Shown one piece after another: positions 1 through 59,547 of a DNA stretch of 64,000 bases. The DNA is from an uncultured Chthoniobacter sp. (GTDB lineage Bacteria > Verrucomicrobiota > Verrucomicrobiia > Chthoniobacterales > UBA6821): NCBI GenBank assembly GCA_964402065.1, contig CAYOAN010000001.1:200920-264919 (forward strand). The letters are read 5' to 3'. Below the pieces are notes generated by a model that was given only the letters and a program-made list of their open reading frames with translations, was not told the DNA's origin and did not search any database. Numbering within the stretch: position 1 is the first letter of the stretch; each line of letters starts with the position of its first letter. The position numbers and the translations under genes are program-made.

Positions 1-1
1 T

Positions 2-181
2 GAAGAATACGACTTGCTTTGGCCTTGTATTGCTAGTTTACAAGAGATGGTCGAAATACCTTTTGTGGCGAGATCTCGTGATAGTTCGATTAATGGATCA
101 GAAAGGGTGAGGGTTGATGGAGCTTCCATTAATGGATCATATTCTGAAACGGCAACAAATCTTTCATCTTCTGTTTTGTAA
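2..181 (+). CDS. 3' end of an unidentified CDS (5' part lies outside the window)
   Basis: Open frame from the window edge to TAA at 179-181 (..EEYDLLWPCIASLQEMVEIPFVARSRD..SSSVL*). No family is recognisable from 59 residues. Confidence 0.3.
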   Translation, partial: EEYDLLWPCIASLQEMVEIPFVARSRDSSINGSERVRVDGASINGSYSETATNLSSSVL

Positions 182-217
182 AACATCTGATTTTTCTCTA
201 TCTTTCTTTTACTCATT

Positions 218-1807
218 ATGAATCAAAAACAAAAATCCTCTCAGCAACACAAAGTTATTATTCTTGATTTTGGATCGCAGTACACGCAGGTAATTGCACG
301 TCGTGTTCGTGAAGCACATGTCTTTTCAGAGGTCTTGCCATACACTACCAAAGCTTCACAGCTCAGTAATGACCCTTCTATTCGTGGTATTATTTTGTCA
401 GGTGGACCAGCAAGTGTGTATGCTAAAAATGCTCCAGCAATTGATAAAAAAATCTACCAGCTAGGAATTCCTATCTTGGGGATTTGTTATGGAATGCAGC
501 TGATAGCTCATACATTGGGAGGAAAAGTCGCGCGTTCAGAACGCCGTGAATATGGGCAAGGTCAGCTCACTGTTAAAAAAGCGGGATTGCTCTTCAAAAA
601 GTTGAGCCGCAAATTACAAGTTTGGAACAGTCATAGTGATCATATTGAAAAATTACCCAAAGGCTTTACCATTCTTGGAACCACAGAAAATGCGCCCCAT
701 GCAGTCATTGCAGATGAAGAGAGAAAAATTTATGGCATGCAATTTCACCCTGAGGTCGCTCATACTCCTCAAGGAAAGGAAATTTTAAACAATTTTCTTT
801 TTGAAGTTTGTCGTTGTTCTGCAACGTGGACGATGGGTTGTTTTATTGATGCGGCATGTCAAAGAATTCGAGAACAAGTTGGTGAAGGTCGCGTCATCCT
901 TGGCCTAAGTGGAGGTGTTGACTCGTCGGTGGCTGCCGCACTGATTCATAAGGCTATTGGAGATCAATTAACCTGTATTTTTGTCGATAATGGCTTGCTT
1001 CGTGGAGGAGAGCGAAAGGGAGTTCAAGATCTCTTTGAACGTAACTTTAAAATGAAGTTGAAAGTTGTTCCTGCAGAAAAACAATTTCTTTCAAAGCTTC
1101 GTGGTGTAAGCGACCCAGAACGTAAGCGAAAAATCATTGGAAAAGAATTTATCCATGTCTTTGAGAAAGCCGCTTTAGACTTACAGCGCGCTTCGAAAAA
1201 AGCAGGGCATCCATTTAAATTTCTTGCTCAAGGAACACTTTATCCTGATGTCATTGAAAGCGTGCCTATCGGCAACAATCCTGCAGCACTCATTAAAAGC
1301 CACCACAACGTTGGGGGACTTCCAAAAAATATGAAATTTGAGTTGGTGGAACCGTTGCGTCAACTCTTCAAAGATGAAGTGCGAGAGGTGGGGCGCGAAC
1401 TTGGTTTGCCGCGTGAAGTTGTAGATCGCCAACCCTTTCCAGGACCAGGTCTTGCCGTTCGTATTATTGGAACAATTACACCTAGTCGACTTAGCATTTT
1501 GCGTGCTGCTGATGCTATTGTGCTTGAAGAAATGAGGGCGTCCGACTGGTACTATAAAGTTTGGCAATCTTTTGCTGTTCTGCTTCCTGTCCAGTCTGTT
1601 GGAGTCATGGGAGATGAGCGAACTTATGACTATACGATCGCTCTTCGTATTGTGGAAAGCCAAGATGGCATGACGGCCAGCTGGGTAGAGGTTCCTGCCG
1701 AAGTGCTTCGTAAGATTTCTAGTCGCATTATTAATGAGGTCAAGGGAGTCAATCGTTGCGTGTACGATATTTCGAATAAGCCACCAGCTACGATCGAATG
1801 GGAATAA
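218..1807 (+). CDS. guaA: GMP synthase (glutamine-hydrolysing)
   Basis: 529 aa. N-terminal class-I amidotransferase ([12 protein letters not shown]), ATP-PPase P-loop [18 protein letters not shown], and the canonical C-terminus PATIEWE. Confidence 0.97.
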
Positions 1808-1856
1808 TGGTTTGTTCATTCTACTAAGATTGTGCACTGCGGCGTTGCTGTGGTGC

Positions 1857-1996
1857 TAGAGCATTTTCAAAATTCTATAGCCGCGTATTGCGGCGTCACT
1901 CCGGTGCTCAAAACCTCGAGTATGAGATATACACTGCGTTTTTGCGCTCCTTGTTCCTGGTGCTACATCGGCTATCATATTTTTTAAAATGCTCTA
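1857..1996 (+). repeat. Family-1 MITE-like palindromic intergenic element, full copy (140 bp)
   Basis: Imperfect terminal inverted repeats: TAGAGCATTTTCAAAATTCTATAGCCG ... CGGCTATCATATTTTTTAAAATGCTCTA. Near-identical to 51239-51379. Confidence 0.85.
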
Positions 1997-2033
1997 CCCT
2001 CGTCACTGTTACCTTTTCTTCATGAATTTTTTG

Positions 2034-2061
2034 CTGTGACCCGCAACCTGTAACCTATAAC
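2034..2061 (+). promoter_or_regulatory. Tandem heptad array (CTGTGAC CCGCAAC CTGTAAC CTATAAC) 10 nt upstream of the coaD ATG
   Basis: Four head-to-tail 7-nt units read directly. The same motif class occurs upstream of 10 other genes. Confidence 0.6.
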
Positions 2062-2071
2062 CTGCCGTTTA

Positions 2072-2551
2072 ATGAAATTTAAACGTGCCATCTATCCAGG
2101 AAGTTTTGATCCCGTGACCAATGGACATCTGGATCTTATTGAGCGATCTCTAAAAATTTTTGACGAAGTGATTGTTGCGGTGGCGCGTAATTCAGAGAAG
2201 CGCCCCCTTTTTTCAGTGGAGGAGAGAATTGATCTATTGAAAAAAAGTATTGGTCCTCATCCACGAGTCCGTTTTGAGTCGTTAGAGGGACTTTTAGTTG
2301 AAGCAGCAAGAGAGCAAGAGGCTTTTGTGATTATTCGAGGGTTGCGAGCCGTTTCTGACTTTGAGTTTGAATTTCAAATGGCCCTGACAAATCGACGTCT
2401 CGAACCCAAAGTAGAAACCATGTTTTTAGCACCTCGTGAGGATTGTATCTTCCTGAGCTCTCGGATTGTCAAAGAGGTAGCTTCCCATGGCGGGGATGTG
2501 GCTGCTTTTGTGCCTGAAGTTGTAGCTACGGCTCTACGAGGAAAGTTTTAG
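2072..2551 (+). CDS. coaD: Phosphopantetheine adenylyltransferase
   Basis: 159 aa. AIYPGSFDPVTNGHLDLIERS nucleotidyltransferase motif, typical length. Confidence 0.95.
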   Translation: MKFKRAIYPGSFDPVTNGHLDLIERSLKIFDEVIVAVARNSEKRPLFSVEERIDLLKKSIGPHPRVRFESLEGLLVEAAREQEAFVIIRGLRAVSDFEFEFQMALTNRRLEPKVETMFLAPREDCIFLSSRIVKEVASHGGDVAAFVPEVVATALRGKF

Positions 2552-2571
2552 GGGATTTTATTAATAGGAAA

Positions 2572-2603
2572 GGGGCTAAAAGCTTCGTGTAGCCCCATTT
2601 TTT
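2572..2603 (+). terminator. Rho-independent terminator after coaD
   Basis: GGGGCTA (2572-2578) pairs with TAGCCCC (2590-2596) across an 11-nt loop, followed by ATTTTTT. Confidence 0.75.
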
Positions 2604-2720
2604 CAACGTGCTCCTAATGAACTATAGTAGTTCTGAAAAAATTGAGATTTTTAATTTTGCTTCATCTTGCTTCATGATTATTCTTGCTGGCATAGAACCT
2701 ATTAAAAGAGACAAATAATA

Positions 2721-3182
2721 ATGATCCCTATCCACCTTCATCAAATTCCTCAAAACGACACACTCTCCGTGGCTGGTGAGATTAGTGTTGGAGAACTGCA
2801 ACCTTTTAGTATTGAGGAGGCCGGTATGGAGCCGGTGGGACCTTTGCATTATCAGTTAGAAGTTGGGTTGTCCGATGGTGGCCTCTTCGCAACAGGATCT
2901 TGGTCGGTTCGACTTAAAGCAACATGTGTTTCTTGTCTGGAGCCATTCGAATATGAGGTCTCGAATAGTGAATTTGGGATGCAAAAAGAACTTACAGGAT
3001 CTGAATTAGTTGACTTGACTGATGAGGTGCGAGAGGATATACATCTTCTTCTGCCCATGCATCCCAAGTGCACTTTGGGTGGAAAAAAATGCCCGGCGCA
3101 GTTTCCGCAAAGAGTAGTTCCCTCTTCAAAAAATTCGGAAGTTCGTTCAGTCTGGGCGGCACTTGATAACTTCAAACATTAA
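2721..3182 (+). CDS. yceD: YceD/DUF177 family protein (large-subunit rRNA accumulation protein)
   Basis: 153-aa acidic protein with CVSCLEPF ... HPKC Cys motifs, in the conserved position directly upstream of rpmF-plsX-fabH. Confidence 0.8.
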   Translation: MIPIHLHQIPQNDTLSVAGEISVGELQPFSIEEAGMEPVGPLHYQLEVGLSDGGLFATGSWSVRLKATCVSCLEPFEYEVSNSEFGMQKELTGSELVDLTDEVREDIHLLLPMHPKCTLGGKKCPAQFPQRVVPSSKNSEVRSVWAALDNFKH

Positions 3183-3188
3183 TCATCC

Positions 3189-3371
3189 ATGGGAGTCCCA
3201 AAACGTAAAGTTTCTAAAATGCGCTTGCGCACTCGTAAAGCAGCTAATCGCTGGCATGCACCAAGTCTTGGCAAATGTCCAACTTGTGATGCTCCAATTC
3301 ACTCTCATACGGTTTGTCCTGCTTGTGGTTCCTATCGCAATCGTCAAGTTCTTGATGTAACTCCTGCTTAA
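3189..3371 (+). CDS. rpmF: 50S ribosomal protein L32
   Basis: 60 aa. MGVPKRKVSKMR N-terminus and CPTC...CPACG zinc ribbon. Confidence 0.95.
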   Translation: MGVPKRKVSKMRLRTRKAANRWHAPSLGKCPTCDAPIHSHTVCPACGSYRNRQVLDVTPA

Positions 3372-3414
3372 TCAGCAGGTCTTTTATTCGTATTTTTTAT
3401 CCCTCTAAAGCAAG

Positions 3415-4455
3415 ATGAGAATTGTTCTCGATGCTATGGGTGGGGACTATGCTCCTGCCAATACTGTGGCTGGAGCGGTCTTGGCGCTCAAAGAATATTC
3501 TAAAATTACCCGTCTTTTTTTAACGGGCGATGAGGCAATGTTGCGCGCTGAAGTCCGTAAACATCAGTGCAACGACCCTCGGCTTGAGATTGTTCATACA
3601 ACTCAGATCGTAGAAATGAGTGACCAAGCCGTTGAGGCTGTTCGCCGGAAAAAAGATTCTTCTATTTCACGGGCTGTGGACTTAGTAAAGAAAAAGGAGG
3701 CCGATGCCGTTGTAAGTGCAGGGCACACCGGTGCCGCTGTGGCTGCAACAACGATTAAATTACGAACGCTCGAAGGTATTGATCGCCCTGGTATTGCAAC
3801 CTGGTTTCCTACTGAAAAAAATCTCTGCGTGATTATGGATGCAGGAGCTAATCTTGATGCTCGTCCAGAACATCTCTTGCAATACGCTATCATGGGATCA
3901 GTTCTTTCTGAGCATATTCTTGGTTATGCCAATCCTTCAATTGGCTTGATGTCCATTGGAAGTGAGGATGTCAAGGGAAGTGGATTTACAAAAGAAACTT
4001 TTAAACTCCTCAAGGCAAGTTCTCTCAATTTTCGAGGCAATGTCGAAGGACATGATCTTTTTGAAAATCCAGTAGAAGTGGTCTTGTGTGATGGATTCAC
4101 GGGAAATGTTGTCTTAAAAACAGCGGAAGCAACGGCTTCGTTTTTAGTGCATACCTTAAAAAAAGAATTAACACAAACGCCAGTTCGTGCTCTTGGAGCA
4201 TGGTTGGCAAAGGGTGCTTTTCGGACCATTCGCAATCAACTCAATCCTGATCTTCATGGAGGTTCACCTCTTTTAGGAATTAATGGAACTTGTATCATCG
4301 CTCATGGATCAAGTTCTGCAATTGCAATCAAGCATGCTATTCGAGCTGCCACTGATTTTATTGAGCGCGGGGTTAATCCTCGTATTGTGGACGCAGTAAA
4401 AGCATATCATTTGAAAAACGCTGTCTCATCTCATGTCTCTGAACTTAAAAAATAA
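3415..4455 (+). CDS. plsX: Phosphate acyltransferase PlsX
   Basis: 346 aa. RIVLDAMGGDYAP, SAGHTGA, conserved synteny between rpmF and fabH. Confidence 0.95.
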   Translation: MRIVLDAMGGDYAPANTVAGAVLALKEYSKITRLFLTGDEAMLRAEVRKHQCNDPRLEIVHTTQIVEMSDQAVEAVRRKKDSSISRAVDLVKKKEADAVVSAGHTGAAVAATTIKLRTLEGIDRPGIATWFPTEKNLCVIMDAGANLDARPEHLLQYAIMGSVLSEHILGYANPSIGLMSIGSEDVKGSGFTKETFKLLKASSLNFRGNVEGHDLFENPVEVVLCDGFTGNVVLKTAEATASFLVHTLKKELTQTPVRALGAWLAKGAFRTIRNQLNPDLHGGSPLLGINGTCIIAHGSSSAIAIKHAIRAATDFIERGVNPRIVDAVKAYHLKNAVSSHVSELKK

Positions 4456-7142: not shown

Positions 7143-7997
7143 ATGTCTTCTATTACTCATCTCTGGACGCGACTCACTTCCAAAAATCATGAAGACGCTT
7201 GGGTAGAGCGTCTTCGTTTTGCGGGGCCTGAGAACCTCGTGATGAAAGCCTTTCCTGCGTCACGGACGTTGCGTTTGCAGGTTTATACGAATGAAGCAAC
7301 TTCTAAAAAGCTTATTAAACTTTTTGGTGGGTCTGTCCGCCCTTTTCGCTTAGCCACTTGGAAGCCTCCTGAAATCAAGCGTCGCAAGCCGCTCTGCATC
7401 GCAGGAGGGTTGCGGTTGCATAATGATCGCGAGTTGTTTTTACAAGATCGCAATAAGAAAAAGGGCTACCCTTTGCTTGTTCCTGCAGAAATGGCTTTTG
7501 GGACGGGAGAGCATGCAACAACTCGAAGTTGCCTTCGGATGCTCAGTAAGATTGCTCTGGAAGAGACAAAAAACAAGTGGTCTTTTCTTGATCTTGGAAC
7601 AGGCTCAGGAATTTTGGCGCTTGCTGCTGAGTTATTTGGAGCAGAAAAAATATTGGGAATCGATTTTGATCCTCGATGCATTAAGGTTGCACGAACTAAT
7701 GCCAAAGCAAACCAGTTATTAAAAGCCACGTGGGAACAAGCAGATCTCCTCAAGTGGAAAATTCCTGGAACATGGAATGTGATTGCAGCCAATATTTATT
7801 CTTCAGTGCTCACGGTTGCAGCTCCTAAAATTGCGAAAGGACTCAAGGCAGAGGGTCATCTCATTCTCTCAGGGATTTTTGCTCAAGAGATTCCTCAAAT
7901 TGAAAATTGTTTTGCTGCACTCGGTCTTCAAAGGAAGCATGCGATTATTCAAGGAAAATGGGGAGCGCTGTGGTTGGAGAGAAGTCATGAAAAATAG
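7143..7997 (+). CDS. prmA: Ribosomal protein L11 methyltransferase
   Basis: 284 aa. FGTGEHATTRSCL and SAM-binding LDLGTGSGILALAA. Confidence 0.88.
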   Translation: MSSITHLWTRLTSKNHEDAWVERLRFAGPENLVMKAFPASRTLRLQVYTNEATSKKLIKLFGGSVRPFRLATWKPPEIKRRKPLCIAGGLRLHNDRELFLQDRNKKKGYPLLVPAEMAFGTGEHATTRSCLRMLSKIALEETKNKWSFLDLGTGSGILALAAELFGAEKILGIDFDPRCIKVARTNAKANQLLKATWEQADLLKWKIPGTWNVIAANIYSSVLTVAAPKIAKGLKAEGHLILSGIFAQEIPQIENCFAALGLQRKHAIIQGKWGALWLERSHEK

Positions 7998-55718: not shown

Positions 55719-55795
55719 AGCGGTTTATCTCAAGTTAATGCTGCAACGATGGTCATTTCGGTACGTGCCTTCTCGATAACCACGTCCAAGAAAAA

Positions 55796-56410
55796 TCAAA
55801 AGTAATCTTTTTTTATTTCAGTGTTAGCAGTGCCATTCTCCCGCATTTCCCATTTTCTTTTTTCCTTTGTAGTCAATTGATCAAGGTCCTTTTTTGAAGG
55901 GAACTTAAAGCTGATTAGTTTTGAAGAGCTCGTATCCCAATCTACATCAAAGATGCACATTTTTTGCTCTTTGAACGGACTACCTTTAAAAGGATAAACT
56001 CCATAAATCAACCTGGCATTTTTTTTAAAAAAATGAACACCTACAACAAAGTAATAAGATGGTTCCTGTATGGGAGGATCACAATCGTAAGCCATCCAAT
56101 GATTGTCTTGGTAATGAACAATGGTGGCCATTGACCCTCCTGATAAATGAGAAACGATAAACAATGATTTTGAATCAGGTGTCCATTTAATATTTTGTAT
56201 GGAAAGAACAAGAGATTTTGAAAAGTCATTTTTAGAGGTTAAGCAATTATGAATTGTTAAAACTGTTTCTCTATCCCCAATAACCAACCTCGCAATATAT
56301 TTTTTGTTTGGTGATGGATATTCTTCATGACGTTCATATGCAACAGCCTCTTGCCCATGTATTAGACAGGTTAAAAATAATGAAAATAAAAAATTGCGAA
56401 AGAAGTTCAT
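55796..56410 (-). CDS. Cassette partner protein A: 204-aa signal-peptide protein of unknown family (candidate immunity/inhibitor)
   Basis: MNFFRNFLFSLFLTCLIHGQEA signal-like N-terminus. Its ATG lies 2 nt after the stop of the upstream gene. SPNKKYIA / WTPDSKSLFIV are beta-propeller-blade-like strings. The paralogue is at 58041-58655. Confidence 0.8.
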   Translation of the reverse strand: MNFFRNFLFSLFLTCLIHGQEAVAYERHEEYPSPNKKYIARLVIGDRETVLTIHNCLTSKNDFSKSLVLSIQNIKWTPDSKSLFIVSHLSGGSMATIVHYQDNHWMAYDCDPPIQEPSYYFVVGVHFFKKNARLIYGVYPFKGSPFKEQKMCIFDVDWDTSSSKLISFKFPSKKDLDQLTTKEKRKWEMRENGTANTEIKKDYF

Positions 56411-56412
56411 AT

Positions 56413-57174
56413 TTAGGATCCAGATGGATAGTAAGTAACTGTAGCATAAATGTCTCTATCATGATTAAATTGGTCAGAAGGATCTGTTGGAACTGGCCCT
56501 AATCCACCACTTCGCTCTTTAATGCCTAATCCGAGATCCTGAGCAGCTTTGATAGAAATTTCACCAACGCTATCTTTTTCAGGACCAAAGTCTCCTACAA
56601 TTGATGAGATAGATTTTATATATTGAGTTGAGTCAATGATGATAGGCCTACCACCTATCATACGCCAAGCGTATGTATAAAAATATACAGTTACATCTGC
56701 TCTGTCTCCCTTTTTGACACCTTGATTAATTAACCATATAGGAGCAACAACATAGGAATCAGTATCAGCATTGAGAGCTTTGTTATTTCTATGAAATGAT
56801 GTGTCCCCCTTATGATCGTAATCTCCATGAGAAGGTCCCGTTCCATCATCATCAAGTTTAATTTGGCCGTTATATGTTAATGGCCCTCTTACCATCATGA
56901 GAGGTAATTCTTCTTTAAATTCAGAAGCATTCTCGTTACTTGACTGATTTTCATAATCAGTTTCAATATTTTTATCGACACTAGTATTTTGATATTCTGC
57001 AGGTGTCTCGCTTTCCTCATTGGTTACTTCATTGCTAGTAGAGTAACAACCAATGCTTGAATAACTGCTAGCTGAAGAGTCAGAGTTGTACTCCGGAATA
57101 CTACTATAGGCAATAAGTTGATTTGGAAATAAAGTAGTCCATAGACAAAAAAGAAGGAGGAAAAATGGTTTCAT
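56413..57174 (-). CDS. Cassette protein A: 253-aa secreted protein with a GH75-chitosanase / double-psi-beta-barrel-like C-terminal domain (candidate glycan-hydrolase effector)
   Basis: Signal peptide MKPFFLLLFCLWTTLFPNQLIA, then an acidic S/N/E-rich linker. Motif order: LDDDGTG, GDTSF, LNADTDSYVVAP, GDRADVTV, IVGDFGP..VGEISIKAAQDLG. Confidence 0.8.
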   Translation of the reverse strand: MKPFFLLLFCLWTTLFPNQLIAYSSIPEYNSDSSASSYSSIGCYSTSNEVTNEESETPAEYQNTSVDKNIETDYENQSSNENASEFKEELPLMMVRGPLTYNGQIKLDDDGTGPSHGDYDHKGDTSFHRNNKALNADTDSYVVAPIWLINQGVKKGDRADVTVYFYTYAWRMIGGRPIIIDSTQYIKSISSIVGDFGPEKDSVGEISIKAAQDLGLGIKERSGGLGPVPTDPSDQFNHDRDIYATVTYYPSGS

Positions 57175-57193
57175 GGTTTTAGATTAGGGTCCT

Positions 57194-57222
57194 TCTAAAA
57201 CTGCGTGCTGGTATATTGTCAA
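57194..57222 (-). promoter_or_regulatory. Sigma70-type promoter of cassette A
   Basis: Minus strand: TTGACA (57217-57222), 17-nt spacer, TTTAGA (57194-57199), about 20 nt upstream of ATG 57174. Preceded by TTTAAAC. Confidence 0.55.
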
Positions 57223-57302
57223 GTTTAAATATCGTTATTTCCATGGATGATCAGCTTTCTATTGTTGGTGAGAAGAGCTAACTTGGATTGTGCTTCTGCG
57301 TA

Positions 57303-57437
57303 TCACACAATAACGTGTCGCAGGATTCGCTCTGGATTAAAAGGAGATCCGCTTCCTGGGAGTCTGATAAGTTTATCCTTGATCATATTTTGCTCAAGTA
57401 GCTCACTCAGAATATGTGCTCGTTCCAACTCCGTGAA
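57303..57437 (-). pseudogene. 3'-terminal fragment of an unidentified gene, truncated by the family-1 copy at 57438
   Basis: Minus-strand frame reads ..FTELERAHILSELLEQNMIKDKLIRLPGSGSPFNPERILRHVIV* with no start codon. The frame begins exactly at the repeat boundary. Confidence 0.4.
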
Positions 57438-57515
57438 TAGAGCATGTTAAAAAATTCTATAACCGCGTATTGCGGCGTCACTCCAGTGCTCGAAGTCCCC
57501 AGTATGAGATATAAT
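57438..57515 (+). repeat. Family-1 element, truncated (left half only)
   Basis: TAGAGCATGTTAAAAAATTCTATAACCGCGTATTGCGGCGTCACTCCAGTGCTCGAAGTCCCCAGTATGAGATATA, after which homology is lost. Confidence 0.8.
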
Positions 57516-57548
57516 ACCCATTTAGGGGAGTGGGGTATAAGAAGATAA

Positions 57549-57917
57549 ATGTTAAATCTTTTGATTTCTTGAAAATTTAAAACCAAATTGGGATTGGTCG
57601 TTTATACAAGTTTCAGCTTTCAATTCTCTAAATAAAGATCAAGTAAGACCCCTACCAATTTATAAAAAGAATGGGATCCACCTCTGAGGCCAACTCGAGA
57701 TTTTCTCTTTTGAAAATCCTCCGAAGCGCTCTTCGCAGCCTGAAGCATGTGGATTGCGGCATTTAGCATTTGCTGTTAATGATCTCCAGGCCGCTGTTCA
57801 ATATTTGGTCGAGAGAGACATTGTCTGTGAACCAATTCGTATTGATGAATTGACGAGTAAACGATTTGTTTTTTCAACACTCCTGATGAGTTGCCATTGG
57901 AGCGTTATGAAAAATAG
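57549..57917 (+). pseudogene. Decayed VOC/glyoxalase-family (YaeR-like) pseudogene
   Basis: 57694-57917 reads LEIFSFENPPKRSSQPEACGLRHLAFAVNDLQAAVQYLVERDIVCEPIRIDELTSKRFVFF-NTPDELPLERYEK* only if 1 nt is restored in the T6 run at 57869-57874. There is an in-frame TGA at 57685-57687. The N-terminal half is eroded or shortened. Confidence 0.75.
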
Positions 57918-58040
57918 ACAAGATCAAGTACAAGGTGGAGAGTATAAGAATTTTTTAACTCTTCCAAAAATTTTTCGACAGATTCAATAAATTGTACCTA
58001 TCACCTTCTTCACTAGGAAAATAACCACGTCCGCGAAGAA

Positions 58041-58655
58041 TCAAAAGTAATCTTTTTTTATTTCAGTGTTAGCAGTGCCATTCTCCCACATTTCCCATTT
58101 TCTTTTTTCCTTTGTAGTCAATTGATCAAGGTCCTTTTTTGAAGGGAGCTTAAAGCTGATTAGTTTTGGAGAGCCGGTATTCCAGTCTACATCAAAAATG
58201 CATATTTTTTGTTCTTTGAACGGACTACCTTTGGAAGGATAAACTCCATAAACTAGCCTAGCAAATTTTTTGAAGAAGTGAGCTCCAACAACAAAGTAAT
58301 AGCATGGACCCTTTACAGGAGGATCACAATTGTAAGCCATCCAATGATTGTCTTGGTAATGAACAATGGTGGCCATCGATCCTCCTGATAAATGCTCAAC
58401 GATAAATAGTGATTTTGAATCAGGCGTCCATTGAATATTTTCTACACGGGAAATAAGAGCTTGTGAAAAATCATCTTTAGAGGTTAAGCAATTATGAATT
58501 GTTAAAACTGTTTCTCTATCCCCAATAACCAACCTCGCAATATATTTTTTGTTTGGTGATGGATATTCTTCATGACGTTCATATGCAACAGCCTCTTGCC
58601 CATGTATTAGACAGGTTAAAAATAATGAAAATAAAAAATTGCGAAAGAAGTTCAT
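58041..58655 (-). CDS. Cassette partner protein B: 204-aa signal-peptide protein (candidate immunity/inhibitor), paralogue of 55796-56410
   Basis: The first 60 aa are identical to copy A. The central region is diverged (DDFSQALISRVENIQW vs NDFSKSLVLSIQNIKW; PPVKGPCYY vs PPIQEPSYY). Same 2-nt coupling to the upstream gene. Confidence 0.8.
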   Translation of the reverse strand: MNFFRNFLFSLFLTCLIHGQEAVAYERHEEYPSPNKKYIARLVIGDRETVLTIHNCLTSKDDFSQALISRVENIQWTPDSKSLFIVEHLSGGSMATIVHYQDNHWMAYNCDPPVKGPCYYFVVGAHFFKKFARLVYGVYPSKGSPFKEQKICIFDVDWNTGSPKLISFKLPSKKDLDQLTTKEKRKWEMWENGTANTEIKKDYF

Positions 58656-58657
58656 AT

Positions 58658-59422
58658 TTAGGATCCAGATGGATAGTAAGTAACTGTAGCATAAATGTCT
58701 CTGTTTTGATTGACTTGATCATGAGGATCTGTTGGAACTGGTCCTAGTCCATTAGAGCGTTCCCTGATACCCAGTCCCAAATCCCTAGCTGCCTTGATAG
58801 ATATTTCACCGACGTCATCTTGCACAGGCCCAACATCTCCTACTATTGATGATATTGATTTTGTATAACAATTACAGGGGTAGGTTACTAAGTTATTATT
58901 GGCATCTAAGCCACTATTATATTCATAAAAATATACGGTTACATCGGCTCTATCTCCCCCTCTAACACCTTGACTGGATAACCATCCAGGAGCGACAACA
59001 TAGGAATCAGTATCAGCATTGAGAGCTTTGTTATTTCGATGAAATGCTGTATCGTTGTTGTGCTTTTTATCATTATGAGATGGTCCCGTTCCATCATCAT
59101 CAAGTTTAATTTGGCCGTTATATGTTAATGGCCCTCTTACCATCATGAGAGGTAATTCTTCTTTAAATTCAGAAGCATTCTCGTTACTTGACTGATTTTC
59201 ATAATCAGTTTCAATATTTTTATCGACACTAGTATTTTGATATTCTGCAGGTGTCTCGCTTTCCTCATTGGTTACTTCATTGCTAGTAGAGTAACAACCA
59301 ATGCTTGAATAACTGCTAGCTGAAGAGTCAGAGTTGTACTCCGGAATACCAGTATAGGCAATAAGTTGATTTGGAAATAAAGTAGTCCATAGACAAAAAA
59401 GAAAGAGGAAAAATGGTTTCAT
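58658..59422 (-). CDS. Cassette protein B: 254-aa secreted GH75/DPBB-like protein, paralogue of 56413-57174
   Basis: The N-terminal roughly 115 aa are nearly identical to copy A. The catalytic-domain core is diverged, but DDDGTG, LNADTDSYVVAP, GDRADVTV and IVGDVGP..VGEISIKAARDLG are retained. Confidence 0.8.
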   Translation of the reverse strand: MKPFFLFLFCLWTTLFPNQLIAYTGIPEYNSDSSASSYSSIGCYSTSNEVTNEESETPAEYQNTSVDKNIETDYENQSSNENASEFKEELPLMMVRGPLTYNGQIKLDDDGTGPSHNDKKHNNDTAFHRNNKALNADTDSYVVAPGWLSSQGVRGGDRADVTVYFYEYNSGLDANNNLVTYPCNCYTKSISSIVGDVGPVQDDVGEISIKAARDLGLGIRERSNGLGPVPTDPHDQVNQNRDIYATVTYYPSGS

Positions 59423-59441
59423 GGTTTTAGATTAGGGACCT

Positions 59442-59470
59442 TATAAAACTGCGTGCTGGTATATTGTCAA
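59442..59470 (-). promoter_or_regulatory. Sigma70-type promoter of cassette B
   Basis: Minus strand: TTGACA (59465-59470), 17-nt spacer, TTTATA (59442-59447). Conserved with cassette A. Confidence 0.55.
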
Positions 59471-59547
59471 GTTTAAATAGCATCGTAGTTATTGTAATTT
59501 TTGAACTATTATTACTTAGAAATTACATTAAGTTGATTTCATCTTAT

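Follow-up and report, generated by a model that had tools for sequence, protein, structure and literature searches.

We propose that the 204-aa protein encoded at 55796..56410 on the minus strand of the window (the whole 64,000-nucleotide stretch of DNA analysed here) is very probably the cognate, Sec-exported (periplasmic) immunity protein of the chitosanase-like toxin whose gene lies immediately upstream. This role is predicted because the same two-gene pairing recurs at Rhs toxic tips in distant bacteria, and an Rhs toxin tip followed by a small, co-diverging gene with an export signal is the canonical layout of polymorphic toxin/immunity loci (PMC3482391). The initial annotation had already taken the protein for a candidate cognate immunity protein or inhibitor in the compartment of the enzyme, and this proposal is now strongly supported, albeit by other evidence, namely the adjacency of the two genes across genomes and their occurrence at Rhs tips. 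The pair in the window is a toxin-immunity module of known kind in a Verrucomicrobiota genome, with both families unannotated in Pfam and NCBIfam, and in our literature searches neither the toxin/immunity pair nor the immunity family turned up in any paper.

Cassette layout and recurrence of the gene pair

The window carries two tandem cassettes on the minus strand, each consisting of the gene for a secreted enzyme-like protein (253/254 aa) and then the gene for its 204-aa partner, with 2 nt between the toxin stop and the partner ATG. In cassette A (repeat unit 55776-57231) toxin A of 253 aa (56413..57174) precedes partner A, while in cassette B (repeat unit 58021-59479) the paralogous toxin B of 254 aa (58658..59422), which has the 'NS' type of hairpin (YEYNSGLDANNNLVTYPCN), precedes partner B (58041..58655), the 204-aa paralogue of partner A. 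The repeat unit extends from 57 nt 5' of the toxin ATG to about 20 nt beyond the partner stop. The conserved 57-nt upstream segment (57175..57231 on the minus strand in cassette A, with its counterpart at 59423-59479 in cassette B) contains TTGACA, and a consensus promoter scan called no promoter within it. Approximately 790 nt of unique DNA (57236-58020) separate the cassettes. This spacer holds a 78-aa ORF on the plus strand (57754-57990) that by eye resembles a glyoxalase/VOC fragment, gave no match in a Pfam scan and is possibly a remnant gene. The cassettes are flanked by GT2, YfhO-like and epimerase genes. [quoted passage not shown]

A partner-family gene was found directly downstream of the toxin domain, on the same strand, in 19 of the 20 distinct complete-toxin loci examined (window A, window B, L001-4, L005-7, L018, L021, L022, L023, L025, L008/9/19, L027, L015, L016/17, L020, L028, L029, L030, L031-33 and L034), and the adjacency persists even for partners that are only about 20% identical. 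Among these loci, the close relatives of the window toxin (L001-4, L005-7, L018, L021-L023, L025 and L008/9/19/27) have the partner gene after them without exception. The identities among toxin domains and among partners are closely correlated (r = 0.97, 17 pairs), a value reached by none of 5000 Mantel permutations. Eight of the paired loci have the toxin domain as the C-terminal end of a far longer protein, and five of these are shown to be RHS/YD-shell proteins. L015 and L020 exceed the Pfam RHS_repeat cut-off (82 and 94 bits vs 22), and L016 and L031 have precomputed RHS_repeat/YD-shell matches. In the translations of L015, L016, L031 and L034 the toxin domain comes after the end of the Rhs core and the tips align with the domain of the window, while the tip of L020 matches the toxin profile; L020, together with L028, L029 and L030, makes up four further large proteins that end in the toxin domain and have the partner gene next to them.

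The same arrangement was reached from the partner side. Four distant partners of about 20-24% identity (P0172, P0185, P0048 and P0065) could each be traced back to a toxin of the window family. P0172 and P0185 lie directly downstream of RHS/YD-shell proteins whose last ~130 residues, which come after the core-terminating motif (...NNPVTRWDxFGL), can be aligned with the domain of the window and share with it the pattern MRLDDDGSGPxH...NLNADxxxYVVAP...VGDxG...WGEVS...GPVIP...PTGY, which ends at the stop codon. The more distant P0048 and P0065 also follow Rhs proteins, and there the tips are divergent versions of the toxin domain.

The single exception to the pairing is a third toxin paralogue, P0022 (L010/11), which belongs to the window's own genome but lies outside the window. 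It is 219 aa long and 49% identical, is found at L010 8001-9386 between gyrA and secA, and is followed by a gene for a 241-aa secreted protein. We considered the latter as a divergent member of the partner family and rejected it (hhalign probability 11%, hmmsearch 0.8 bits); it may be an alternative immunity protein. Conversely, the gene upstream of the partner relative P0041 (L012), 55 aa of which are visible (L012 3-170), does not end in a sequence recognisable as the toxin domain. That gene ends in …SLAFALSLVIDGW at its stop codon, which is not toxin-like, and the contig is short. P0041 is either an orphan immunity gene or one paired with a different toxin. The contig of another relative, P0061 (L014), is too short to inform on pairing.

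The surroundings of the cassette differ between genomes. In L001-L004, on contigs of ~16 kb (genes 1-3601, 7245-7883), it lies beside a TrwC-type relaxase, split Transposase_mut genes and a ParA/CbiA ATPase, which points to a copy carried by a plasmid or an integrative element; a tblastn search of PLSDB plasmids with both proteins gave no matches. In L008 (4225-5039, 8423-10531) and L009, which come from a Chthoniobacterales/'Verrucomicrobia RIFCSPHIGHO2' relative, toxin-antitoxin genes (YoeB/YefM and ParD) and type III secretion genes (FHIPEP/SctV, YscD-like) flank the cassette. These plasmid-like and toxin-antitoxin neighbourhoods are consistent with a mobile conflict module. They also bear on another explanation, according to which the pair is a housekeeping glycan-remodelling hydrolase, acting on chitosan or exopolysaccharide, with its regulatory inhibitor, so that its location among surface-polysaccharide genes would be meaningful and no interbacterial conflict would be involved. 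GH75 enzymes are indeed chitosanases, and the position of the cassettes between GT2, YfhO-like and epimerase genes would suit such a role. However, Rhs proteins use this very domain as their toxin tip, related cassettes are found in plasmid-like surroundings (TrwC relaxase, ParA, transposase) or beside toxin-antitoxin modules, and the genomic position of the cassette varies among relatives, so we regard a housekeeping function as highly improbable.

Folds of the toxin and its partner

Scans of the full-length toxin against Pfam, NCBIfam and PHROGs gave no usable match. Toxin A is made up of a signal peptide (by inspection), a YSSIPEY..YSSIGCY motif, an acidic linker and a C-terminal GH75-like double-psi beta-barrel (DPBB) domain. 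The AlphaFold2 model, built on a 22-sequence alignment, has a leader helix, then a disordered, acidic Ser/Asn-rich linker (aa 15-92, pLDDT < 50), and then the C-terminal domain (aa 93-253, with the 'AW' type of hairpin) at a pLDDT of about 90. When the model was compared with the PDB using Foldseek, five entries of the viral GH75 chitosanase V-Csn (7TVO, 7TVP, 7TVM, 7TVN and 7TVL) took ranks 1-5 with E values of 5e-5 to 8e-5 and a probability of 1.0, and there was no other significant match.

Six positions are universally conserved in GH75, namely the acidic residues D34, D36, D148 and E157 (V-Csn numbering) and two glycines, and the V-Csn mutations E157Q and D148N abolish or reduce activity (PMC9485262). 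The toxin segments D108-x-D110-G and G-D195...G-E205 match this signature in order and spacing. D108 and D110, within codons D108-D109-D110 of toxin A (56845..56853, minus strand), correspond to V-Csn D34 and D36, while D195 and E205 (VGD....VGEIS; 56560..56592, minus strand) correspond to D148 and E157, and all four acidic residues are invariant in the 17 aligned toxins. At the sequence level the Pfam Glyco_hydro_75 profile gave weak matches to four of 11 domain sequences (best E 7.6e-4, below the family threshold); the window toxins themselves had no match to it (PF07335) at E ≤ 1 and missed the gathering threshold, and a toxin-domain profile searched against PDB sequences returned only noise. 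Taking the Foldseek match to V-Csn, the acidic signature and the weak Pfam GH75 matches together, we assign the C-terminal domain, on the basis of its modelled fold, as a hydrolase of the double-psi beta-barrel type that is distantly GH75-like and retains the full catalytic signature, rather than as a Pfam-level member of GH75. Like V-Csn (PDB 7TVL; PMC9485262), the toxin has a double-psi beta-barrel core, a DxD...D...E tetrad with the same spacing and a variable insertion between conserved segments. Unlike V-Csn, with which it shares 15-19% identity, below the Pfam GH75 cut-off, it lacks the 70-aa Domain-2 and has in its place a beta-hairpin insertion, which is hypervariable (aa 166-190 of toxin A; 56605..56679, minus strand) and is missing from the Rhs-tip versions. 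The toxin domain further differs from GH75 chitosanases in being paired with an immunity gene and fused to Rhs.

Two further observations concern the toxin. The YSSIPEY...YSSIGCY double motif lies just after the signal peptide (aa 24-47 of toxin A, 57100-57035; 59348-59283 in toxin B) and precedes the disordered acidic linker. It is kept even in relatives at 40-50% identity (YSNIPEY, YSSISEY, YSNISSY) and is missing from the Rhs-tip versions, and it could be a sorting, anchoring or secretion tag. Separately, the toxin model matches the BFVD entry A0A6J7X6A9 (E 9e-9, 157 columns, 26% identity). This 551-aa protein comes from an uncultured Caudovirales phage and bears the annotation 'molybdopterin dinucleotide-binding domain'; it may represent a homologue of the GH75-like domain in a phage, such as a virion-associated lysin.

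The 204-aa partner likewise found no usable match in scans against Pfam, NCBIfam and PHROGs. A word-seeded search recovered only seven close relatives, while an exhaustive profile search recovered 143 partner-family cluster representatives at E ≤ 1e-3, mostly 175-205 aa long with hydrophobic leaders. The AlphaFold2 model of the partner, of moderate confidence (pLDDT 71.7, pTM 0.63), consists of an N-terminal helix (residues 3-19), about 11 beta strands arranged as hairpins, and C-terminal helices. Its Foldseek matches were segments of beta-propellers only (TolB, trilobed protease, acylaminoacyl peptidase, DPP-IV and WD40, E about 1e-3), and a 66-sequence partner profile matched TolB blades among PDB sequences at E 7e-5 over profile positions 27-117. 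The remark in the initial annotation that the protein contains blade-like strings was therefore right, in that the family weakly matches TolB/PD40 propeller blades. The partner is predicted from its model to be a partial beta-propeller of roughly three blades; at 204 aa it falls short of a complete six-bladed TolB/PD40 propeller with an N-terminal TolB domain. By eye, basic and hydrophobic N-terminal leaders are present in all partners, in stand-alone and Rhs-linked contexts alike. A lipoprotein, as might be read from the FLTC string, was considered and rejected on inspection, as conservation of the Cys is lacking (L005 and L018 have R instead) and T occupies position -1.

The nearest structural precedent is Tsi1 of P. 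aeruginosa, a periplasmic immunity protein with a leader that inhibits the T6SS amidase Tse1. Its three antiparallel sheets make up a partial beta-propeller, to which a short C-terminal helix is added, and its closest structures are DPP-IV-type propellers (PMC3391265). The partner model resembles Tsi1 in combining a partial propeller with C-terminal helices and in matching TolB, acylaminoacyl-peptidase and DPP-IV propellers, and the partner too is proposed to neutralise a cell-wall enzyme acting in the periplasm. Sequence similarity between the two was not detected, as the matches of the 66-member partner profile among all PDB sequences at E ≤ 10 included TolB and WD40 proteins but not Tsi1. 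Unlike Tse1, which is an NlpC/P60-type amidase delivered by the T6SS, the window toxin has a GH75-like glycosidase fold.

The same data could be read as those of an accessory subunit (a chaperone, secretion adaptor, or substrate- or receptor-binding subunit) that serves the export or activity of the toxin. Adjacency and co-divergence would fit an obligate helper equally well, beta-propeller-like folds often mediate protein or ligand binding, and the stand-alone toxin and the partner share a compartment. Adaptors of Rhs and T6SS toxins are cytoplasmic and usually encoded upstream. The partner, by contrast, has an apparent export signal and its gene comes right after the toxin tip, where immunity genes are canonically found, and its fold has an inhibitor precedent in Tsi1. 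We therefore consider it very unlikely that the partner is a helper, and favour the immunity role.

Divergence between the two cassettes

The two 204-aa paralogues had been described in the initial annotation as identical at their ends and divergent in the middle, and this was borne out, with every quoted string exact. Partners A and B are identical at 179 of 204 residues (88%, BLASTP) without gaps; residues 1-60 are the same in both, and residues 170-204 differ only at 170 (F/L) and 190 (R/W). The toxins are 83% identical, with the differences limited to aa 113-240. Over the cassettes as a whole there are 169 differences in 1382 aligned nt, yet uninterrupted identical runs of 268 and 227 nt are present. 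In 10,000 shuffles no identical run exceeded 116 nt (mean 43), so the block pattern is far from chance, and we read it as a gene-conversion mosaic. The first tract (268 nt; 56834..57101 on the minus strand, identical to 59082-59349) covers toxin codons 25-114, and the second (227 nt; 56231..56457 on the minus strand, identical to 58476-58702) extends over the final 15 codons of the toxin, the 2-nt gap and codons 1-60 of the partner. The boundaries of the tracts disregard gene and domain boundaries, the second tract crossing the toxin-partner junction.

In the unconverted blocks dS was 0.39-1.17 (saturated in the hairpin) and dN/dS 0.15-0.44, with a value of 0.23 for partner aa 61-169. For the variable region of the partner the median omega was 0.18 (range 0.11-0.31) over 28 pairwise comparisons among eight close loci. 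Gene-wide positive selection was rejected on these values, and both copies of the cassette appear, from their sequences, to be intact and under purifying selection. Since the dS between A and B (0.49) equals the scale found between the copies of different metagenomes, the cassettes would represent old lineages carrying recent conversion patches.

These findings bear on the earlier claim that the joint divergence of partner and enzyme is the expected signature of specificity co-evolution, a claim that found no support. Both genes lie within one duplicated segment, so joint divergence is expected in any case, and the identical blocks are conversion tracts. The pairwise codon analysis of the copies and their homologues that the initial annotation had recommended returned the low dN/dS values given above, and partner blocks are swapped relative to toxin type in related loci.

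It is unlikely that A and B embody orthogonal toxin/immunity specificities in which the variable residues of the partner have co-evolved with the variable half of the toxin and each partner protects only against its own toxin. In favour of such specificities, the catalytic half of the toxin and the core of the partner stay divergent between the conversion tracts, which leaves a residual argument for selection against homogenisation. The two hairpin types are also each conserved at other loci, AW (YTYAWRM-IGGRPIII) in cassette A, L005, L018 and L021, and NS (YEYNSGLDANxNLVTYPCN) in cassette B, L001, L022 and L023. Within this close group toxin and partner identities remain correlated (r = 0.705, reached by two of 5000 permutations), and over the eight loci the residues at partner sites 115, 125 and 151 divide without exception according to toxin type. 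However, this partition is inseparable from shared ancestry, because the eight sequences represent about four independent lineages, and these three are the only ones of the 25 partner sites differing between A and B that track toxin type; the other 22 are independent of it, many being private to one copy. Block 1 of the partner (nt 958-1017) runs against toxin type, in that the cassette A version is 0.98 identical to that of L022, an NS locus, while the cassette B version is closest (0.90) to that of L021, an AW locus. Overall, partner A is nearer to the partners of NS loci (0.83-0.85) than to those of AW loci (0.75). The dN/dS of 0.15-0.44 in the divergent blocks, with high dS, and the median partner omega of 0.18 also argue against it. 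Furthermore, since the Rhs-tip toxins without the hairpin retain the same immunity family, recognition must rest largely on the conserved core.

A broader version of this idea would hold that the two specificities are kept apart despite conversion and are set by the toxin hairpin together with partner sites 115, 125 and 151, and that the stand-alone toxins are a bacteriolysin system of Verrucomicrobiota which requires Sec but no contact, with the previously undescribed YSSIPEY..YSSIGxY motif as its routing signal. We regard this as speculative and improbable. Cassettes A and B illustrate cleanly how tandem paralogues that undergo patchy conversion can give the impression of "co-variation".

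Proposed mechanism and significance

We propose the following model for the immunity role. Toxin and partner would both be exported by the Sec pathway, as suggested by leaders recognised by inspection. Since the partner has an apparent export signal, the toxin would act in the periplasm, which fits a glycan hydrolase attacking the cell wall, and the immunity pairing together with the Rhs fusion points to a target in the bacterial envelope rather than to nutritional chitosan. The toxin would thus hydrolyse an envelope glycan, most plausibly the peptidoglycan backbone, since an immunity protein is needed at all and is predicted to be periplasmic. In the periplasm the partner would bind the DPBB domain of the toxin and block its acidic cleft, thereby shielding the producer until the toxin has left the cell, and also from the toxin of sister cells. 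In Rhs-bearing bacteria the domain would be delivered as the Rhs tip, while in the Verrucomicrobiota lineage of the window the toxin is a stand-alone protein with its own signal peptide (by inspection) and disordered linker. The two cassettes probably arose by an old duplication (or acquisition) of the whole module and were later partly homogenised by gene conversion. Several points count against the immunity reading. A stand-alone toxin with its own Sec signal would meet its partner in the periplasm of the producer, which is unusual for effector-immunity pairs; the others include the P0022 exception, P0041, the partner pLDDT of 72 and the sub-threshold Pfam GH75 matches.

The module shares its principal features with the Rhs and other polymorphic toxins surveyed by Zhang et al. 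(2012, PMC3482391), in that the toxin domain forms the extreme C-terminus of RHS/YD-shell proteins, a small same-strand gene directly downstream co-diverges with it, and the domain also occurs as a stand-alone toxin with a Sec signal, a class included in that survey. It is unlike annotated polymorphic toxins in that the toxin domain and the immunity family are absent from Pfam and NCBIfam, and unlike Rhs systems in that the module of the window is stand-alone, tandemly duplicated and patchily gene-converted. The survey stated that beta-propeller immunity proteins were unknown at that time (PMC3482391). A chitosanase-like fold has been noted before in an antibacterial effector, as a table in PMC12135965 gives 101 WHIX T6SS effectors with an HHpred-assigned 'Chitosanases-like' toxic domain. 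The resemblance of these domains to the window toxin is one of fold label, and the passage around that table describes neither an immunity family nor biochemical activity.

A glycosidase toxin with a GH75-like double-psi beta-barrel, paired with a putative periplasmic immunity protein of partial beta-propeller fold, defines a previously unannotated family and assigns a putative function to about 140 clusters of hypothetical proteins. The partner would also be a second, sequence-unrelated case of the Tsi1-type "fragmented propeller" inhibitor architecture. Together the findings suggest that Verrucomicrobiota of soil and freshwater, and their neighbours, employ chitosanase-fold enzymes as antibacterial weapons, with the cell wall as the probable target.
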